DNA from: a virus
Length of the DNA: 64,000 nt
Virus record (IMG/VR): IMGVR_UViG_3300034374_008984
Location: 9,652 to 73,651 of that record
Reading direction: 5' to 3' (one strand)
In this document: positions 2,132 to 28,610 of the stretch, piece by piece
Layout of the letters: the number at the start of each line of letters is the position of its first letter
Position numbering within the stretch: the first letter of the stretch is position 1
Notes under the pieces: generated by a model
The model's database searches: none
What the model was told of the DNA's origin: nothing
Seen by the model: the letters and a program-made list of their open reading frames with translations, nothing else
Made by a program: the position numbers and the translations under genes

Positions 2132-2380
2132 ATGAAAGCCAACACCTACAAAATGAGAGCCGAAGGGGCATGGGACGTTGCCCGCTTCATCGGGGCAACA
2201 GCCGGACAGCTCTCAAAATTCAAGATGGAAACCATAGGCCACGGCCCGGACGTGACACTTGAATTTACCACCGTTCACTCGCGAGCCAACATTCAGAAAG
2301 CTCTTTCAATGTTAGACGATGCTCATGTGATGAGCCAAACATTGGCCCTCAAACGGGACTACACAGGCGAGCGCATTTAA
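2132..2380 (+). CDS. early hypothetical protein
   Basis: ATG at 2132 after the leader repeat. Confidence 0.7.
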   Translation: MKANTYKMRAEGAWDVARFIGATAGQLSKFKMETIGHGPDVTLEFTTVHSRANIQKALSMLDDAHVMSQTLALKRDYTGERI

Positions 2381-2406
2381 CCAATTCAACCAACAACCAC
2401 AACGCC

Positions 2407-2712
2407 ATGAACCACTACACAGGCACAGACTATCTGATTGACAACGAGAATGGGACATTCGGAACCGAGAACGACTACGGAGTAATTGAGGACGGACTGA
2501 CATTTGAACAGGCAAAGGAGCGTTCCTTAAAGTACAAACTTGGATATTCCGACCTCCTTGTTGACTGCCAGACATTTGACGACTACAAAACAATCGGTTC
2601 AGAGATTCAGCGAATGCGAAGGCTTTACAACACAATAAAAGAGCGGTCAAAGTATCTCAAGAGAGCATTAACACCTGAACAGGCCGCCATCGCAGAGGCT
2701 TACAACTTTTAA
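2407..2712 (+). CDS. early hypothetical protein
   Basis: 101-aa ORF after the leader repeat. Confidence 0.7.
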   Translation: MNHYTGTDYLIDNENGTFGTENDYGVIEDGLTFEQAKERSLKYKLGYSDLLVDCQTFDDYKTIGSEIQRMRRLYNTIKERSKYLKRALTPEQAAIAEAYNF

Positions 2713-2732
2713 TGAACCAACAACCACAAACC

Positions 2733-3362
2733 ATGAAAAAGGAAAACTTCGAGAAACTCATTCAGGCAGTAACAGGCCGTCCTCTTGAGATTATCACAGA
2801 GGACAACGAGATCCAACTGCAAACAGAGTATTGCATAGCTCACAGGAACATAGAGGGCACTGACAACTATGTTCGATTTTATTGGAAAACACCAAAGAAA
2901 CAAGACAACATCATGCGATCATTCATTACCGCCTTTGCGTCAAAGTACACGCAGCCGAACCCGGCCAAATACGGACCGAACGACTGGAATCCCGACCGCA
3001 AGACATGGGACCAGATGACCGGCAGGGAGCGAACTATGGCCTATTACCACCACAGGAGCTATATGTACACCAAGGAGCAACTACTCAAACAGGTAGAAGC
3101 CAACTTCGGTACACCTCAAATGGGAACCGCCATGATGCGCTACGGTTTCTACCTTACAGACTACGGGTTTGGAACCTTCGTCTTGTTCGGAGGGCAGCAC
3201 GTTGAGAAGGCTGTTATGAGGATGCGCGAGTATCTGAAATTGGAAAACATCCCTTACCGGAACGAGCTTTCGGACGCAAGATGGGTGCTCCGTTTTGTCC
3301 TCAACATGGGGCGACCGATACACGAGAAGATCCTGACCAAGTTTAACGCAACAATCAATTAA
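2733..3362 (+). CDS. early hypothetical protein
   Basis: ATG at 2733 after a 24-nt leader identical to 2114-2137 (alternative start 2712). Confidence 0.75.
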   Translation: MKKENFEKLIQAVTGRPLEIITEDNEIQLQTEYCIAHRNIEGTDNYVRFYWKTPKKQDNIMRSFITAFASKYTQPNPAKYGPNDWNPDRKTWDQMTGRERTMAYYHHRSYMYTKEQLLKQVEANFGTPQMGTAMMRYGFYLTDYGFGTFVLFGGQHVEKAVMRMREYLKLENIPYRNELSDARWVLRFVLNMGRPIHEKILTKFNATIN

Positions 3363-14429: not shown

Positions 14430-14630
14430 ATGACCCACAGACAAGAACAGCAGGAACATTTTGACCGGCTATGCCACCTCCGAGGGTTCGACCCCTTGAA
14501 GCGCATCGACAACAGCCACGCAAGAACCCGCCTAAAAAGGTCTGACGAGGTATGGTATGAAGGGAGGGCCTATCGGGTGATTGACGTGATGGGGAGTCCT
14601 AAACTGGAATTGATCAACAAGGTGAAGTAG
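14430..14630 (+). CDS. hypothetical protein
   Basis: ATG at 14430 after an A-rich leader, within ORF 14172..14630. Confidence 0.55.
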   Translation: MTHRQEQQEHFDRLCHLRGFDPLKRIDNSHARTRLKRSDEVWYEGRAYRVIDVMGSPKLELINKVK

Positions 14631-21767: not shown

Positions 21768-23783
21768 ATGAACAGTAACGAGTACGAGATAGAGACAAGC
21801 CAGCCCGACCCCGAATCGGGAGCCTCTGAGCACGGCAAGGAGGCAACGTCCATCCCTAAGCTGATCCTCCCTGCACCGATACCCGTCAGGCCACCCAAGT
21901 ATTCTCGGAATCAGTACGAGGAGGAACACAAGGAGTGGCTCAGAAAGAAGCGAGGGGAATCGGCATGGAGAACTGAGCAAAGGAGGAGATGGAAAGAGGG
22001 GTTTGCGGGATTGACGGGAATCCACTACTTCTACATTACCCAGATGCGGATAAAGGACGCGGAGGGAAATCCCATCCGGCCCATGTGGAGGGATGTGGAC
22101 GAGGAAATCTTCCGAGAGTTCGAGCTGTGCTACAAGGACGAAATCGACTTCTACGTGTTCAAGAGACGTGAGGTGGGACTTTCATCCGTGTTCGGAGGTG
22201 CGATTCCATTGTACCTCCTCATCATGTACCCCAACAGCACCTCGCTAATGACCTCCGCTGACCTTACCCGCGTGAAGGACCTCATGGCGAACAAGCTCAT
22301 TGCCCAGCACAGCTACCTTGAGGATTGGGTAAAGCCGAAAAGGAAGACCTACGACCCGCAGAAAGGGGCCACGTTCTTGGAGATTGACGAGGACGGCAAC
22401 GAGACAGGGAACATGGCCGAGATTGTTTGCAGGCAGACATCGCAGGATAAGAAGGACGTGACCAACTTGGAGGGCGCAAGGGCCAAGTATGTGTTCCTTG
22501 ACGAGCTCTTCCTTCACCCGTACCCCGAGGAGGTCCGCTCGTCAGCCCAATCGTGTCTCATGTCGGGCATGGAAAGAGTTGGGATCATGGTGGCGGGAGG
22601 TAGCGCGGGTGCCGTGTCGAGGCTCGGACTGAAACAGGCAAGGGAAATATCTCAGAAGGCATTGACGGGAAGCCTGAGAATGCTGTTTCTGTCGGGGGCG
22701 AAGGGGATAACAGCCGCAACGATACGAGATGAGAACGGAAAGAAGATAGGCACGGAGAACTTCTGCATAAACGGATGGTCGGACGTGGCGCGGGCAGAGG
22801 CATACATTAAATGGCAGAGAGCGATACTTGACCTGAGCCCCAACAAACAGGAACTCATCTCATTCACCAAGAGGTATCCGCTCACGCTCGAAGAGGTACT
22901 CACGTCAGACGATTTCGGGGTGATTCCAAGAGACATTGCCGAGCAGATACCCGCACAGGAACTCGAACTAAGAAGCAACCCAAGAAACCTCAAACGGGTC
23001 ACGATAACATTCGAGAACGGGAAGCCAACTTTCAGGAACGACAGCAGAGGCGCGTGGCTCATCCTTGAACACCCGGTCGCTGGAGAGTACTACTGGATGG
23101 GAACGGACGCGATTCCCATGATGGCAAAGAAGGCTGAGGCCACAATAAACCCCGATGGAACGGAGCGGTCGATGCACTGCTCGGCCATTAAACGGAAAGG
23201 CACCAACAGCTACGTTGCCATATATCTCCGCAGGACATCCGATGTGGACCTCATATTCGATGAGATGTTCGCAGCTCAACAGGCATATAACAACTGCCAG
23301 AACATGATTGAGAGAAACTCCGCAGGACTCATCTACGATAGATACTCCCGTAGCGGAAACCTCAAATACCTCGCGTATCAACCAGAAGCGTTCGGCTCCA
23401 AGGGATTCAAGAAGGGAACCGTCAGGGGAGTACACAAGGACGGGCACAACTCGGAAAGGATCTACAACGCAGGGTTCGACTACTTCAGGGACAACATGCG
23501 CCTCGTTGACTTCCCTATCATCCTCGAACAGCTCAGAGTGTTCGGCTCAGAGAACACGGACGTGATTGACGCGATAATGATGTGCGAGGTGTTCCATAAG
23601 TATCAGGAGATCTCAGCAGGGGAACGCGCTGTCAGGGCCATGAAGCAGACCTACAAATACCAACCCTACATCACATACGAGAACGGGAACCGCGTAGTGA
23701 GACACAAGAAGGTGGCCGTCAATTCGGCAGGTCAAGTAATAGGCCCCCATCAAGGAATGACACCACTGACAGGATTATTGTGA
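21768..23783 (+). CDS. terL: terminase large subunit
   Basis: KRREVGLSS (Walker A variant), YVFLDE (Walker B), RNase H-like nuclease GTD/MIERN/DVIDA; promoter TATCTTTG at 21732. Confidence 0.88.
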   Translation: MNSNEYEIETSQPDPESGASEHGKEATSIPKLILPAPIPVRPPKYSRNQYEEEHKEWLRKKRGESAWRTEQRRRWKEGFAGLTGIHYFYITQMRIKDAEGNPIRPMWRDVDEEIFREFELCYKDEIDFYVFKRREVGLSSVFGGAIPLYLLIMYPNSTSLMTSADLTRVKDLMANKLIAQHSYLEDWVKPKRKTYDPQKGATFLEIDEDGNETGNMAEIVCRQTSQDKKDVTNLEGARAKYVFLDELFLHPYPEEVRSSAQSCLMSGMERVGIMVAGGSAGAVSRLGLKQAREISQKALTGSLRMLFLSGAKGITAATIRDENGKKIGTENFCINGWSDVARAEAYIKWQRAILDLSPNKQELISFTKRYPLTLEEVLTSDDFGVIPRDIAEQIPAQELELRSNPRNLKRVTITFENGKPTFRNDSRGAWLILEHPVAGEYYWMGTDAIPMMAKKAEATINPDGTERSMHCSAIKRKGTNSYVAIYLRRTSDVDLIFDEMFAAQQAYNNCQNMIERNSAGLIYDRYSRSGNLKYLAYQPEAFGSKGFKKGTVRGVHKDGHNSERIYNAGFDYFRDNMRLVDFPIILEQLRVFGSENTDVIDAIMMCEVFHKYQEISAGERAVRAMKQTYKYQPYITYENGNRVVRHKKVAVNSAGQVIGPHQGMTPLTGLL

Positions 23784-23835
23784 CTTGTAAAAAATTTATT
23801 TGCACAGGTTAAAAATTGTGCGTAGTTTTGAAGGC

Positions 23836-24222
23836 ATGATCCAATCCACCTCCTGCACGGTGCATCCCTCAATAAGCCCCTCCGAGAATTATCTATCGGT
23901 GTTCCTCGGTGTGCATCAGTACAAAGACCAGTTCGGGGCTTATCCAGTGGCGGTCGTGAAGGACAAGAACGGGAGACTCATGCAGTGCAAGCTGTCGGCA
24001 GTGGAGGTAGAGGTTCCTTGGGGGATACCTTGCAGGGTCATCTACAAGGACACCGACTACACGACACTGTTCTTGGGCACGTTCGACTTCTCCGATGGAG
24101 AGAAATCCTATCCGGTGGCCGTTATCAGGAACCAGGATGGGAGGTTGCAGGCAATCCGTTTGGAGGCCGTTCACTTTCTCTCCTCCGTGTATCTCTTTGA
24201 AAGAAAAAAGAATGAACCATGA
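23836..24222 (+). CDS. hypothetical protein with internal duplication
   Basis: Two copies of FLG...YPVAV++..+GRL...L.AV; ATG 5 nt after a TTTG-N20-TAGTTTTG promoter. Confidence 0.75.
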   Translation: MIQSTSCTVHPSISPSENYLSVFLGVHQYKDQFGAYPVAVVKDKNGRLMQCKLSAVEVEVPWGIPCRVIYKDTDYTTLFLGTFDFSDGEKSYPVAVIRNQDGRLQAIRLEAVHFLSSVYLFERKKNEP

Positions 24223-24401
24223 ACCTCCCCGACACCCCATACAAGATAGGCTCCACCCGAATCCTCAACGAGGGCAAGAAGTGGTTTCTTTGCAGGGCCA
24301 CCCCTCCGATACACAAAGGGTTCTGCTATGTGGTCTGGAAGAAAATCAAAGAAGTGCCCAATCAAACAGGAAAGTCGCAGCTTGAGTTTCAGTTTGGGTA
24401 A
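24219..24401 (+). CDS. small hypothetical protein
   Basis: ATGA overlap; its TAA stop is part of the GGGTAAC core at the left edge of the cassette array. Confidence 0.6.
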   Translation: MNLPDTPYKIGSTRILNEGKKWFLCRATPPIHKGFCYVVWKKIKEVPNQTGKSQLEFQFG

Positions 24402-24484
24402 CGTATTGGTATATGGTTAGTGCCGTGTAAATAGCACAGACCTTTGAATTAAGAACAGAAGTAATAATTAAATATTTTTAGAGC

Positions 24485-25177
24485 GTGGGCAAAATAAATA
24501 ACTTATATACAGCAGAAGCATTATCATTTATGAAGGAAATGAATGATAACTCTGTTGACATAATAGTAACATCACCACCGTATAATTTAATGGGGCAATA
24601 CTCTTGTAAATCACAAATGAACAGAAGTTTTACAAGTAAAAGGCTTGAAGATTGGTATGATGATAAAATGGATGAAAAAGAATACCAACAATGGCAAAAA
24701 GAATGTGTTAGGGAAATGGTTAGAATATGTAAAGGAAGTGTTTTTTACGTGCATCAAGTTAGATATGCTTGGGGTAGAAAAAACGAGTTTTACCACCCTA
24801 TACATTGGTTAAATGAATTTGTTATATGGTCTGAAATAATTTGGAATAGAGGAAATGGTATAAGTGCTGCAAAAAGACCAACAATGGCTGACCAAAGGAT
24901 TTATATGATTGGTAAACCTAAAGTTTGGAATAAGCCAAATTGCACAAGTGTTTGGGATATACCTTCTGTTAGAAATTCTAATCACGTTTGTCCATTTCCT
25001 GATGAATTAGTAGAAAGATGTTTAAATATGTGTAGTAATGAAGGCGATATTGTTTTTGACCCATTTGTAGGTATAGGAACAACAGCAAGAGTTGCTAAAA
25101 AAATGAATAGAAAATATATTGGTGTTGATATAAATGAAAATTATATAAACGAAGCTAAAACCAAATTGCTGACGTAG
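24485..25177 (+). CDS. N4-C/N6-A DNA methyltransferase (beta class)
   Basis: TSPPYN, H.CPFP, DPFVGIGTT; flanked by a 15-nt direct repeat. Confidence 0.93.
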   Translation: MGKINNLYTAEALSFMKEMNDNSVDIIVTSPPYNLMGQYSCKSQMNRSFTSKRLEDWYDDKMDEKEYQQWQKECVREMVRICKGSVFYVHQVRYAWGRKNEFYHPIHWLNEFVIWSEIIWNRGNGISAAKRPTMADQRIYMIGKPKVWNKPNCTSVWDIPSVRNSNHVCPFPDELVERCLNMCSNEGDIVFDPFVGIGTTARVAKKMNRKYIGVDINENYINEAKTKLLT

Positions 25178-25294
25178 GAAACAAAAGAGCGTGGGCAAAA
25201 AATATTTAATTATGGGTAAAAAGGCACAAACGATTGAATTAAGCACGAACTTAGGCATTAACTATATACCGTGTTGTAAAATCGTTTTAATGTT

Positions 25295-25427
25295 TTACAA
25301 CGTTTTCGGGCTTGGCGAAGGCGGGGATTTAACCACAAAAGTTTAATAGAATGACAGAAGATAATTTACATACAAAAGTTGATTTGGAAAACGGAAGCCC
25401 CGCTTTTGCCAAACCCGTGTTATACGC
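25295..25427. repeat. attC-like hairpin 2 (about 133 nt)
   Basis: TTACAAC...CGGGCTTGGCGAAGGCGGGG (25307-25326) / CCCCGCTTTTGCCAAACCCG (25398-25417)...GTTATAC. Confidence 0.8.
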
Positions 25428-26064
25428 TGGGGCGGGTATCAAGGCAAACATTTCAATTTATAACGAGGACTGTTTGCAAGCATTAAAGGCAATGGCAGAC
25501 AAACAATTTGATTTAGCCATAGTTGACCCACCTTACGGAATAGGAGCAGAAAACCACGCAGGCAATAAAGATAATGGATGGACACAATGGGCTAAAAAAG
25601 ATTGGGATAAGGCAATACCAACGGCTGAATATTGGGAGCAACTTTTTAGGGTAAGCAAAAATCAAATTGTTTGGGGTGCAAATTATATGACGGAATACTT
25701 ACCACCTAAAATGGGTTGGATTGTTTGGGATAAAGGGCAAAGGGATTTTAGCCTTGCTGACGGAGAACTTGCTTGGACTTCATTTGATAAAGCAATGAGG
25801 ATATTTACTTACGCAAGAGCAAAAGCATTAAAGGAAGGTAAAATACATCCAACGCAAAAGCCGACTGATTTATACAAATGGCTTTTAGATAAGTATGCAA
25901 AGCAAGGCGATAAAATCCTTGACACCCATTTAGGAAGTGGAAGTATTGCCATTGCCTGCTGGGATATGGGTTACGACTTAACAGCCTATGAAGTTGATAA
26001 GGAGTATTACGATAATGCTTGCAAACGATTAGAAACGCATAAGTCTCAATTAACGCTATGGTAG
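25351..26064 (+). CDS. N6-A/N4-C DNA methyltransferase (beta class)
   Basis: VDPPYG, IHPTQKP, DTHLGSGS. Confidence 0.93.
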   Translation: MTEDNLHTKVDLENGSPAFAKPVLYAGAGIKANISIYNEDCLQALKAMADKQFDLAIVDPPYGIGAENHAGNKDNGWTQWAKKDWDKAIPTAEYWEQLFRVSKNQIVWGANYMTEYLPPKMGWIVWDKGQRDFSLADGELAWTSFDKAMRIFTYARAKALKEGKIHPTQKPTDLYKWLLDKYAKQGDKILDTHLGSGSIAIACWDMGYDLTAYEVDKEYYDNACKRLETHKSQLTLW

Positions 26065-26106
26065 CCCTTGCGTATAACTCTCCGATACACGAAAGTTTAC
26101 TATGCA

Positions 26107-26337
26107 ATGAAACACACAGTGTCAACAACATACGATTTAGTGTGGCAGATTAGTGGCGCGGAGCATTACAAGTTTACTTCTGATGGCATCTGCATAAATA
26201 CCCGAACAGGAAAACGAATAAAGAAGACCCTTTGTGGCCGTTCTGTCGGGTATTGCATTTCGGGGAAATTCGTGTCGACCACTACGCTAAGGACACGACT
26301 TCAGCGAATCCCGAAAGAGATTTCCTGCCCGTTCTGA
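26107..26337 (+). CDS. small hypothetical protein next to the array
   Basis: ATG 26107; HYKFTSDGICINTRTGKRIK loosely resembles NUMOD4-like beta modules. Confidence 0.65.
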   Translation: MKHTVSTTYDLVWQISGAEHYKFTSDGICINTRTGKRIKKTLCGRSVGYCISGKFVSTTTLRTRLQRIPKEISCPF

Positions 26338-26396
26338 CATCATTCCCTCCATTGCGTTCCCTTCCGTAGCTTTGTCCCCTACGGAGATAACTCAGC

Positions 26397-28610
26397 ATGG
26401 ACAACTACAAGCTACTTGACACGGAAGGCCCATCGCATCAGATGGAGACCCACCGCCCTAATGTCGTAGGCACGAAACGGGCCCTGAAAAAAGAACACAA
26501 GGGGATGCACGGCATGATTGCCAAGTACCTCCGCTTCATGGTCACGCAGTGGAACCTCGACTACAATACCCCTCTCTACTCCACGAGGAATCCCGGCCAC
26601 ATCCTTCACAGGTCTCCCGTAGAGGAGATGCTCCTCAATTACAAGTACTATCAGTCCCAGCAGGATGTTAACAGCTATGCCTACCTGACAGAAACCGCAG
26701 AGGGGGAGGAGCGTCCAGCCAAATTTACCCATGGTTCAGAGATCTATCAGGTGGTGCAGCACATGGTAGGCCCCGTTGTGAAGCACTTCGCAGGGACAAC
26801 CATCACAATCGAATCCCTTGATCCCTCCGTGCAGTCCAAGCGGCAGGCCAAGGTCGCAATGCTTCAAGCCAAGAAACTCCTGCCAGACATCTTCAAGAGG
26901 TTCTCCGAAATGGGCGCCACGTTCATGCCTGAAGGAGCAACCGAGGCAAAGGACATGGACGGGGCTATTCAGGAGGCGCTGAGAAAACCAGCCCACAAGG
27001 TCGAGCGGTACGGCATGGACATCCTTACTCATGTCAACAACACCAACAGCGTAAAGGACTACATGCCCAAGCGTTTCAAGGATGTCGTCATTGGAAGGCA
27101 TTGCGCAACGCACAGAACAGTATCCAATGGAAGAATCGTCCTCGAAAAGATTGACCCTTGGAACCTCATCTTCGACAGAGACAACTCAGATGACGACTAC
27201 AACAGGTACGCCCTGTTCAAGGGATTCATCAGTTGGAAATCCCACGAGGAGATCATGCAGGCGTACACCCTCGGAAGCGATGCCGAGGAAGAACTCAAGA
27301 AGCTCTTCGACAGCAACAGGAGTGCAACACTGCCGGGACTCAACGGAGTGATGGGTAATGTCCCCCAATCTGGATTCTCTTGGCTGGAATCGGACGGACC
27401 CCGTAGAATAGCCTGTGTGACAGGATACTTCATCGCCACGATAAAGGAAGATGACGGGACATCCTATCAGACCATCTACGAGGGGACTTTGATAGGAAAC
27501 ACGGTGCTTGTCAACTTCGGGGAATCCAACAACATCAGCTACGACATAGCCCGACCTGAGTGGCCGGTCATGCCCATCCATATCTACAGCCCCGACACGA
27601 TACTCGGAACGAACGTCTGTCCCGTGGACCGGTTCAGAGAAATGCAGGAGGACTTGGATGCGTTCAAGTACAAGATTCGGGAACACATCGACAGAGACCT
27701 CGGAAAGGGGTATGTGTTCTATGCGGATACAGCCGTTCCGAAAGACATCATTGAAGACCTCAAGAACTTCGGTGTAACAGTCATCAACAGGGCCGACCCC
27801 GAGGAACCCATCATCAACAACAACAGGATGGTGGACACAGTGGACATGACCCTTGACCCTAACGTGGCACAGTACATAGCCCTGCGAAAGGAGTTCAAAG
27901 CGGACATGGACAATGTGGTATCCCAATCGAACATCACGAGAGGGATGCAGCAGACGTACATCGGTGGAGGTACACAGCAGGCCACCGTTGCACAGGCCAG
28001 CAACGGCACCGTTTCTCTCATGTCGGGATTCTTCCAACACTTTGCCTTCATAGAGCAGGACATATTAAATACCGCCAAGACAATGCTCTTGGAGCCCAAG
28101 AACAGGGAAGAGGCGGAACTCATTCTCTCTGACGCAAGCGCAGATTTCTGGGAGGCCATGCAAGACCTCAATGTCATCGACATGCAGGTGCGTATCGAGA
28201 TGGAGGACTTCATTGACGAGGAGCGCAGGGCAAGGTATCAGCAATATGCCCTCGCAATGGCACAGAACGCGAGAGAGACAGGGTTCACAATGCTCGATGC
28301 CATCAACATCGAGAACGCCCGCACAAGTCAGGAGTTGATGACCAAACTGAAAGAGTCCCTCGAACTGAAAGAACTGAAAGCCGAGCGCATGAGACAAGAA
28401 GACATGGCTATGCAGCAGCAGATGCAACAGATGCAGATGCAGCAGCAAGGTCAGATGTTCCAACTCGAAGAACAGAACAAGGCTCTTCGAGACCAGATCC
28501 GCAACGCGCCCAAGCACGAGGCCAATCAGATCAAACGCGAGGAGATGAACATGTCAAGGGACATGGTATTCGCCTCCGAAGCAGGAATGCCAGGAACAGA
28601 AGTGGAATAA
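26397..28610 (+). CDS. portal protein (putative)
   Basis: 737 aa between terL and scaffold/capsid; IDPWNLIFD motif, Gln-rich coiled C-terminus; promoter TAGCTTTG at 26367. Confidence 0.75.
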   Translation: MDNYKLLDTEGPSHQMETHRPNVVGTKRALKKEHKGMHGMIAKYLRFMVTQWNLDYNTPLYSTRNPGHILHRSPVEEMLLNYKYYQSQQDVNSYAYLTETAEGEERPAKFTHGSEIYQVVQHMVGPVVKHFAGTTITIESLDPSVQSKRQAKVAMLQAKKLLPDIFKRFSEMGATFMPEGATEAKDMDGAIQEALRKPAHKVERYGMDILTHVNNTNSVKDYMPKRFKDVVIGRHCATHRTVSNGRIVLEKIDPWNLIFDRDNSDDDYNRYALFKGFISWKSHEEIMQAYTLGSDAEEELKKLFDSNRSATLPGLNGVMGNVPQSGFSWLESDGPRRIACVTGYFIATIKEDDGTSYQTIYEGTLIGNTVLVNFGESNNISYDIARPEWPVMPIHIYSPDTILGTNVCPVDRFREMQEDLDAFKYKIREHIDRDLGKGYVFYADTAVPKDIIEDLKNFGVTVINRADPEEPIINNNRMVDTVDMTLDPNVAQYIALRKEFKADMDNVVSQSNITRGMQQTYIGGGTQQATVAQASNGTVSLMSGFFQHFAFIEQDILNTAKTMLLEPKNREEAELILSDASADFWEAMQDLNVIDMQVRIEMEDFIDEERRARYQQYALAMAQNARETGFTMLDAINIENARTSQELMTKLKESLELKELKAERMRQEDMAMQQQMQQMQMQQQGQMFQLEEQNKALRDQIRNAPKHEANQIKREEMNMSRDMVFASEAGMPGTEVE

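Follow-up and report, generated by a model that had tools for sequence, protein, structure and literature searches.

How does a pair of DNA methyltransferase genes come to stand, in an AT-rich island, between the terminase and portal genes of a phage? The question was raised by a freshwater phage known from the IMG/VR record IMGVR_UViG_3300034374_008984, which is 73,651 bp long, carries direct terminal repeats and is rated complete. The window, i.e. the whole stretch of DNA that was analysed, comprises 64,000 nucleotides (bases 9652-73651 of the record), and positions below are those of the window unless a contig or another phage is named. Between terL and the portal gene lies an AT-rich island of 1.68 kb (guanine-cytosine content, GC, 0.31-0.41 across ~24350-26150, against 0.48-0.58 in the flanks), which carries two N6/N4 DNA methyltransferases of family PF01555 (M1 and M2), both on the + strand. 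An initial annotation of these letters had already described such an island with its methyltransferases, and had read it as an integron-like cassette array without an integrase.

The island (24399-26078) is very probably a two-cassette array of the integron type without an integrase (a CALIN, cluster of attC sites lacking integron integrases), inserted at a TAAC in the gap between terL and the portal gene. Four observations carry this reading: the cassettes follow an integron grammar, their arms and ends covary, whole units have moved between unrelated contexts, and the same sites are linked to chromosomal arrays with an adjacent recombinase. The phage probably borrows a gene-capture system of its host.

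Structure of the two cassettes

Every core, arm, unit end and loop repeat listed in the initial annotation, and the asymmetric bulge as well, was found where it had been placed (Table 1). The spacers of both sites are asymmetric, the AAC core being followed by 5 nt and the GTT core preceded by 1-2 nt. Site 2, with its GTT at 25419, measures 125 nt and lies within the usual size range of attC sites, which is roughly 57-141 nt. The direct repeats in its loop (25327-25360 and 25364-25397) share 71% identity, and when both strands were folded as DNA the + strand was the more stable (-18.5 against -14.8 kcal/mol). A scan of the window for AAC, stem and GTT recovered site 2 alone; three shuffles gave 0, 0 and 0 matches. 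As had been proposed, the hairpin supplies the start of the gene: the M2 ATG (25351) lies in the site 2 loop, the first 22 codons span the loop and the 3' arm, and the 3' arm with GTTA encodes AKPVL, which is conserved in an alignment of M2 relatives. The ends of the M2 unit (25419-25433 and 26064-26078, 15 nt) are 87% complementary (13/15).

Two long hairpins had been annotated; the second stands, but site 1 is not an ordinary hairpin, for its 829-nt loop holds the entire M1 gene. Its arms (17 nt each) are 88% complementary, and the direct repeats in its loop (24429-24475 and 25219-25265) share 70% identity. On either side of M1 stand two further repeats that had not been annotated, a perfect inverted repeat of 16 nt and a direct repeat of 15 nt (24480 and 25186). 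When 24399-25276 was folded as DNA, the outer arms and the inner 16-nt repeat were both paired in the minimum free energy (MFE) and centroid structures; the fold energy was -77.8 kcal/mol (z -2.24), and 0/20 shuffles were as good. The 29-bp stretch after site 1 had been taken for a separate empty unit. Two other viral contigs with M1 (L009 and L010) hold this stretch too, with covariation in its stem, so it is the tail of the M1 cassette. In this cassette a hairpin encloses the gene, and behind it come complementary ends (GTTGTAAAA and TTTTACAAC, 9/9) with a body of 11 nt between them.

This 11-nt body, TCGTTTTAATG, is a conserved 11-mer: it occurs in the window at 25282-25292, in contig L008 at ~30030 and ~30935, and in L009 and L010; in the Polaribacter phage P12002L it is the loop of short hairpin sites. 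A second motif, composed of a T-run, GAGCGnGGGnAAA and an A-run, was observed upstream of methylase starts in unrelated phages (L008 ~32155, L006 ~2390, L009 ~1490) and flanks M1 on both sides (24480-24494 and 25186-25200); a motif like this one (leader motif 'C' of Table 1) was found upstream of methylase genes in P12002L, mymlan6-1 and L009. A search of the viral contigs for site 1 in a form lacking M1 (its two arms separated by 115-145 nt) gave 0 matches. The homologues of M1 in isolate phages all show <60% identity, and therefore give no context.

A family of covarying hairpins

Hairpins of this kind are repeated in the Flavobacterium phage hemulen6-1, in which three tandem methylase genes are each preceded by one: TAAC and a 5-nt spacer lead into an arm of ~20 nt, the start codon lies in the loop, and the second arm runs into GTTA; the start sequence of each unit is complementary to the end of the same unit. 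A MAFFT alignment with broken arm register was set aside for an alignment of 20 sites. In these 20 sites, paired cells amounted to 75.9% (56.6% when shuffled; 0/500 shuffles reached the observed value), the covariation score was 0.495 against 0.164 in shuffles, and controls with a slid register were 36-49% paired. The arm pairs were altered on both sides in 16/18 cases, and a C-A mismatch was kept in 18/20 sites.

Comparison with attC sites gave the following. Inside the hairpin the structure is kept and the sequence is not, as in the inner palindrome of attC. Extrahelical bases mark the bottom strand of attC sites; none of the canonical ones were identified in the hairpin family. The AAC/GTT pairs of the outer cores are kept in 19-20/20 family sites. 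The window cores read TAAC...GTTG (site 1) and CAAC...GTTA (site 2), and fit in part the RRRY portion of the attC core consensus G/TTRRRY, as it is given in the available portion of Qi, Rajabal, Ghaly, Tetu and Gillings 2023 (PMC9892861).

The complementary ends are general. In 58 distinct units, the 9 nt that follow GTTA were compared with the 9 nt that lead up to the next TAAC: 6.26/9 positions are complementary, against 2.88/9 in mismatched pairings, and at least 6/9 positions are complementary in 45/58 units, as compared with 3.1% of controls. Such complementarity makes sense only for a unit that is circular or folded end to end, which is the grammar of integron cassettes.

A covariance model (R1) was built from the 20-site alignment, with the L013 row shifted by one base. 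Over the whole 73.6-kb phage genome R1 gave one match; site 2 scored 92.3 bits, but is itself a seed of the model. R1 was also run on viral and genome loci, all of which had been fetched through relatives of M2: 34 matches were obtained in 13/81 viral loci and 30 in 14/80 genome loci, every one on the strand of the query methylase. On P12002L, the two seed sites were not recovered at E ≤1, and these sites were read by eye; the sole strong match in that phage, 14502-14625, lies elsewhere than its two seed sites.

Recurrence of whole units in unrelated contexts

The M1 unit (24400-25295) is 95.6% identical to positions 2047-2946 of viral contig L010 and to two copies in L009. The flanks are unrelated, the homology begins at window position 24400 and it ends at the AAC cores. 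The stem of the M1 tail is altered on both sides, from GTTGTAAAA/TTTTACAAC in the window to GTTAGCAAA/TTTGCTAAC in L010. Contig L009 was seen to hold the M1 cassette and the following small open reading frame (ORF) cassette twice (243-1142 and 2174-3074), with a third methylase cassette between the copies.

The M2 unit (25404-26078) is 94.7% identical to viral contig L013, again with unrelated flanks, and the match ends exactly at TAAC (26078). The L013 hairpin has the same outer arms as the window, and its inner arm is swapped with compensating changes. When the region was compared with 50,697 phage records at the nucleotide level, M2 alone gave matches, the best being 71.2% to hemulen6-1, where the match starts within the 5' arm of site 2.

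Isolates of Lillamyvirus and Muminvirus (Flavobacterium phages) have flanks that are 98-100% identical and unit sets that differ by whole units. All right edges of these arrays read xxxTAAC followed by the backbone sequence TACAATATT, in agreement with the annotated entry side on the right. One methylase unit of 657 nt stands in four contexts and is always cut at the TAAC left of the hairpin, so the hairpin travels with the gene downstream. Thus the whole units bounded by AAC/GTT cores, and the gene lying behind its hairpin in antisense to the canonical cassette orientation, are both borne out. Where fixed content at one locus would have pointed to another explanation, the same cassettes were found in unrelated contexts with breakpoints at the cores, and the hairpin family flanks many other genes, as the R1 matches across viral and genome loci show.

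Chromosomal arrays and the candidate recombinase

Genome loci with R1 matches were mostly from Bacteroidota (Flavobacterium, Flavobacteriaceae, Chitinophagaceae, Pedobacter, Sphingobacteriales, Saprospiraceae); a few small contigs of metagenome-assembled genomes (MAGs) were labelled otherwise. With 150 candidates scored per genome, at least 135 R1 matches were counted in Flavobacterium croceum DSM 17960 (G002, which holds locus L133), 42 in a Chitinophagaceae MAG and 22 in a Flavobacteriales MAG. The G002 matches are spread over dozens of short contigs (C2-C93), which looks like an assembly fragmented by a very large cassette array. In a stricter survey (34 candidates scored per genome), 8/101 family genomes had an R1 match at E ≤1e-8.

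A tyrosine recombinase gene, of the kind that the initial annotation had suggested seeking beside such repeats in Bacteroidota, adjoins the arrays of genomes G003, G004, G005, G061, G013 and G095 and is transcribed toward the array in each; the same holds for G124, by way of a weak site match (E 0.048). In G003, a gene for a single-strand binding protein (SSB) and a recombinase of 349 aa are followed by the array, whose sites lie on the strand opposite the cassette ORFs, i.e. in the canonical order of ORF, then attC; the layout of the other six can be described as its mirror image. The recombinases of G003 and G005 are 53% identical over their full length. The unit that adjoins the recombinase in G005 (locus L105) is a methylase cassette of the M2 family, and its hairpin is nearly the same as that of L013. 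The G003 enzyme passes the cut-off of NF040815 ('tyrosine recombinase/integron integrase') with 223.5 bits (cut-off 220), and the solved structures closest to the array-adjacent recombinase are archaeal XerA and a XerC-like protein. Homologues at E ≤1e-60 were present in 91/151 family genomes, many at contig ends, a threshold that surely admits other types of recombinase. In locus L173, the array-adjacent recombinase gene (915-1964) begins within the SSB gene (595-918; TIGR00621, E 1.5e-35). Recombinases of 405 aa and 447 aa near sites in G002 and G001 are weakly Xer-like and were not counted as partners.

No such enzyme is encoded by the phage itself: tyrosine recombinases (PF00589), serine recombinases (PF00239) and Y1 transposases (PF01797) were all absent from the 73.6-kb genome, as annotated for the integrase, and PF00589 was found in 0/5 array-bearing isolate phages. 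The locus thus agrees with the CALIN class rather than with a complete integron.

The units could instead have been shuffled as modules by homologous recombination between hairpin leaders, without any site-specific enzyme, in the manner of the promoter-stem-loop (PeSL) cassettes of T4-type phages. The phages do lack any recombinase, the hairpins bear common leader motifs and a start codon, and some blastn homology extends up to ~19 nt beyond TAAC into the next hairpin. Only ~8 nt (TAACGTTT) are common to different sites, however, while the arms differ, and the breakpoints lie at TAAC. Homologous exchange gives the complementary, covarying cassette ends no role. Moreover, arrays of the same sites lie next to a tyrosine recombinase on chromosomes, and there the ORFs run on the other strand, so that the hairpin cannot serve as their leader. 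We regard this explanation as improbable.

Folding strand and orientation of the genes

The strand described by the model folds better than its complement in 48/60 sites (DNA parameters, p 1.2e-5), and remains the better-folding strand in 9/12 chromosomal sites where it is antisense to the ORFs, which favours single-stranded DNA over mRNA as the folded molecule. The longest ORF of each unit was compared with the folding strand: 16 were sense, 0 antisense and 5 ambiguous in isolate phages (21 units), and 21, 0 and 3 in viral contigs (24 units), i.e. 37 sense, 0 antisense and 8 ambiguous for the 45 phage units; in genome loci, 11 were sense, 10 antisense and 2 ambiguous (23 units). These counts are not independent, because the loci were picked via the methylase and the isolates are close kin. 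The canonical cassette, with its ORF upstream of attC and sense to the top strand, is not the layout of the window; there, both genes run in the sense of the folding strand, with the hairpin in front of the gene (M2) or around it (M1).

The hairpins might act in RNA only, on the translation or stability of methylase mRNA, with the island a fixed and ancient part of the phage. The start codon in the loop, the folding strand that is the sense strand in phage units and the G-T wobbles tolerated on that strand all suit such a role. Nevertheless, units at ~95% identity occur in unrelated genomes, the chromosomal folding strand is antisense to ORFs and still folds the better in the sites counted above, the GC of the island is 12-20 points under that of the backbone, and a scan for promoters and terminators remained at chance level (3 terminator-like signals found, 2.7 expected); a purely RNA-level function is very improbable. 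An HUH enzyme of the IS200/IS605 type could have transposed single strands, cutting by subterminal hairpins at a tetranucleotide like TTAC or TAAC. The hairpin and its conserved tetranucleotide, the strand bias and the lack of a target duplication would agree with this, but it is scarcely credible since the phage has no Y1 transposase, each unit has one hairpin instead of two different ends, and the array-adjacent enzyme is a tyrosine recombinase.

Proposed mechanism of cassette exchange

On the + strand, a cassette is composed of C, a 5-nt spacer, an imperfect hairpin, GTTA with a short stretch X behind it, the cassette body, then X' (complementary to X) and TAA. In the excised circle, X' TAAC would pair with GTTA X and so lengthen the stem of the hairpin, as in an attC site of an integron. 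The + strand would be the folding or 'bottom' strand, and exchange would take place in or beside the TAAC at the 5' foot of the hairpin. A tyrosine recombinase supplied in trans by the host would act on the folded site, as the array-adjacent recombinases of Bacteroidota genomes suggest; the candidate is the Xer/IntI-like enzyme of ~350 aa beside the chromosomal arrays, and exchange may still be going on in the phage.

The methylase genes of the phages are sense to the folding strand, the reverse of the canonical orientation, so that the hairpin comes before the gene and extends over its start. In this orientation the genes could be expressed by read-through from terL. The methylases would serve to methylate phage DNA against host restriction.

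Points weighing against an integron-type array

Several results weigh against the reading as an integron-type array. Site 1 is 878 nt in total, outside the size range of attC sites, and only its 5' half was matched by R1 (13.6 bits, E 2.1). Rfam gave only three matches, all at chance level (E 3.9-9.5). The test of strand asymmetry is partly circular, because the sites had been chosen by a model of that strand. The G003 recombinase stays under the cut-off of TIGR02249 (216.6 against 265 bits) and is not a canonical integron integrase. When the G005 (L105) enzyme was aligned with VchIntIA (PDB 2a3v), the alignment fell into two pieces, with 18 residues opposite 60 (186-245), a region that we take to be the IntI-specific segment of the catalytic domain.

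The insertion locus itself contributes further points. The only backbone relative, L176, is too distant to show a breakpoint. A predicted empty site (both flanks with a 0-20 nt gap) had 0 matches in metagenome contigs, as did the left flank alone, in a set that may omit the own and near records, so that these results say little. Neither an excised circle nor an alternative cassette at the terL-portal locus was seen. The sequencing runs were used as assembled contigs, in which rare junctions cannot show. A tblastn search with TerL against 50,697 deposited phage genomes gave no match. Lastly, the P12002L site known to be recombined by IntI1 may lie outside the present hairpin family.

Phage setting and features of the locus

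The backbone belongs to a poorly sampled lineage: TerL has one relative in IMG/VR (59% identity), and a query with the portal protein against viral contigs gave no close backbone relative. L176 lacks the island and has 63 nt between the small ORF and the portal gene, where the window has ~2.2 kb (24223 to 26396); its terL, portal and small ORF are 59%, 48% and 31-33% identical to those of the window. Searches of Pfam and PHROG with the 60-aa ORF gave no match. The 140-aa ORF is an internal duplication, each half of which aligns to a single 89-aa ORF of L176.

The junctions GGGTAA/C and GTATAA/C fit two units entering at one TAAC, as annotated; the empty site predicted with this entry is the one that was sought above. 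A direct repeat of 19 nt flanks the island (24304-24322 and 26080-26098; 84% identity, 11 nt exact: CTCCGATACAC), one copy lying within the 60-aa ORF and the other beginning two bases past the right junction; it could be due to chance or be a trace of the entry event.

Table 1. Positions of the two cassettes and of neighbouring features in the window
Positions	Strand	Feature	Remarks
21768-23783		terL	phrog_6681, E 4.1e-15
23800-24222		140-aa ORF	between terL and 60-aa ORF
24219-24401	+	60-aa small phage ORF	TAA stop sits in left TAAC core
24396-24402	+	left core GGGTAAC	TAAC 24399-24402: left junction of island, start of M1 cassette
24408-24424	+	site 1, 5' arm	after 5-nt spacer GTATT; paired in MFE and centroid structures
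24429-24463	+	loop element 'A', copy 1	homologous to site 2 loop repeats (comparison by eye, including P12002L)
24464-24479	+	inner inverted repeat, left arm	perfect, 16 nt; right arm 25198-25213; pairs in fold
24480-24494	+	leader motif 'C' (AGAGCGTGGGCAAAA), left copy	15-nt direct repeat
24530-25177	+	M1, N6/N4 DNA methyltransferase	PF01555 E 3.9e-37, profile 1-220 of 221; phrog_67
25186-25200	+	motif 'C', right copy	overlaps right arm of inner repeat (25198-25213)
25219-25253	+	loop element 'A', copy 2	
25254-25270	+	site 1, 3' arm	then GTT at 25273
25273-25301	+	M1 cassette tail	GTTGTAAAA, TCGTTTTAATG, TTTTACAAC; two ends complementary
25295-25301	+	core TTACAAC	left foot of site 2
25298-25422	+	site 2, attC-like hairpin	CAAC, spacer, 5' arm 25307-25326, 71-nt loop, 3' arm 25398-25417, GTTA
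25351-26064	+	M2, N6/N4 DNA methyltransferase	PF01555 E 2e-14; phrog_67 E 1.7e-41
26064-26078	+	M2 cassette end	complementary to 25419-25433; TAAC 26075-26078: right junction
26079-26337	+	phage backbone right of array	phage-level composition resumes; putative entry site (attI-like or secondary)
26107-26337	+	ORF	right of island, before portal; within the backbone stretch 26079-26337
26397-28610		portal	phrog_6547, E 1.3e-26

Contigs of other samples were available from 24 sequencing runs of the same habitat, four of which were compared with the island; none of the contigs of these four runs bridges the island ends. In run X7, the backbone contigs (depth ~8.5) end at 24429 and restart at 25274, an 818-nt contig covers 24421-25234 at depth 54, and M2 bins reach up to 223. 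Contigs of other samples with M1-like or M2-like sequence are several times as deep as the backbone, and their branch points lie close to the hairpin arms. The higher depth is suggestive of cassettes shared with more abundant genomes, contig depths not being copy numbers.

One contig of run X7 (699 nt, depth 6.3) joins 24479 to 25179 and skips M1. The shorter side of this joint has 26 letters at 88% likeness, and the joint was not counted, being too weak; it may represent a version of site 1 without M1, or another organism. Other contig joints (25541-25921) fall inside the conserved coding part of the methylase and are probably due to other methylase genes.

Relation to known systems

Phage CALINs with methylase cassettes are already known, and the array of the window is a member of this published kind. 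In the available portion of the text of Qi, Rajabal, Ghaly, Tetu and Gillings 2023 (PMC9892861), 17 CALINs are reported among 10,705 phage genomes, including one with two methylases in the virulent Polaribacter phage P12002L; two sites 'with divergent directions' were predicted in this phage, and one attC site was recombined by IntI1 into attI1. Flavobacterium phages have 0 occurrences in that text, and it describes no gene start in the hairpin, grammar of complementary ends, chromosomal source or partner recombinase. The two phages have much in common: P12002L is a virulent phage of a Flavobacteriia host with an integrase-less attC array and N6_N4 methylases, and the present hairpin family occurs throughout its early region, with arms that closely resemble those of site 1 and with an identical TCGTTTTAATG loop. 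The array of the window lies between terL and portal, unlike the P12002L CALIN.

Sedentary chromosomal integrons of the Vibrio type share with the present system a core of the G/TT type, an imperfect palindrome and complementary cassette ends; both also have large arrays flanked on one side by a tyrosine recombinase, and strand-specific folding. In contrast to them, the Bacteroidota recombinase is ~40 residues shorter at the extra segment of VchIntIA, stays under the TIGR02249 cut-off and is transcribed toward the array; the spacers of the sites are asymmetric (5 against 1-2 nt), a conserved C-A mismatch replaces the extrahelical bases, and the phage ORFs are inverted relative to the site.

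The PeSL cassettes of T4-type phages, which Arbiol, Comeau and Krisch are said to have described in 2010 as mobile cassettes of promoter and terminator-like stem-loops thought to act via homology, are likewise small accessory genes in hyperplastic regions of phages, each with a stem-loop and shuffled among relatives. The present units differ from them by precise TAAC junctions, covarying ends and a chromosomal counterpart linked to a recombinase. IS1111-attC elements and group IIC-attC introns insert into attC sites and thus also place extra DNA inside attC, as M1 is inside site 1; unlike these, the M1 insert has no transposase or intron features, and it has a bracket of a perfect 16-nt inverted repeat with a 15-nt direct repeat inside.

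What is new in the present locus is the gene that is sense to the folding strand, inverted with respect to the site, together with the site that overlaps the gene start; a cassette with its gene inside the hairpin loop; an array within the packaging module; and an apparent partner, the Xer/IntI-like recombinase of ~350 aa without the IntI insertion.

Significance

In the available portion of Nilsson et al. 2020 (PMC7077304), Baltic Flavobacterium phages are reported to differ in their methylases, a turnover linked to plating efficiency on different hosts; hairpin, cassette and integrase do not occur in that text. The differences among these phages are whole cassettes cut at TAAC, and capture of cassettes from the host would provide a concrete mechanism for rapid turnover of phage methylases.

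The results also point to large cassette arrays in Flavobacteriia and Chitinophagaceae. The only Bacteroidetes entries in the available portion of the IntegronFinder 2.0 paper (PMC9024848) are In0 elements and a single complete integron, that of Salinibacter ruber; a review (PMC8618304), as far as its available text goes, names Bacteroidota among the phyla with integrons, and a literature search of partial coverage found no description of attC arrays in Flavobacteriia. Such arrays were barely seen in the surveys, likely because the partner recombinase lacks the hallmark by which integron integrases are called.

A wider proposal, on which we find belief and doubt evenly divided, is that Bacteroidota run an integron-like system of their own, with a Xer-like recombinase without the IntI insertion and arrays of more than 100 units, and that its cassettes circulate into virulent phages. 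The phages would keep only the cassettes whose gene is sense to the folding strand, the site doubling as a 5' leader and N-terminal coding sequence and even holding a whole gene in its loop, and would thereby possess a plug-in anti-restriction repertoire that is rewired by a host enzyme during infection. Phages would then be active clients of the host gene-capture system, and not merely passive carriers.

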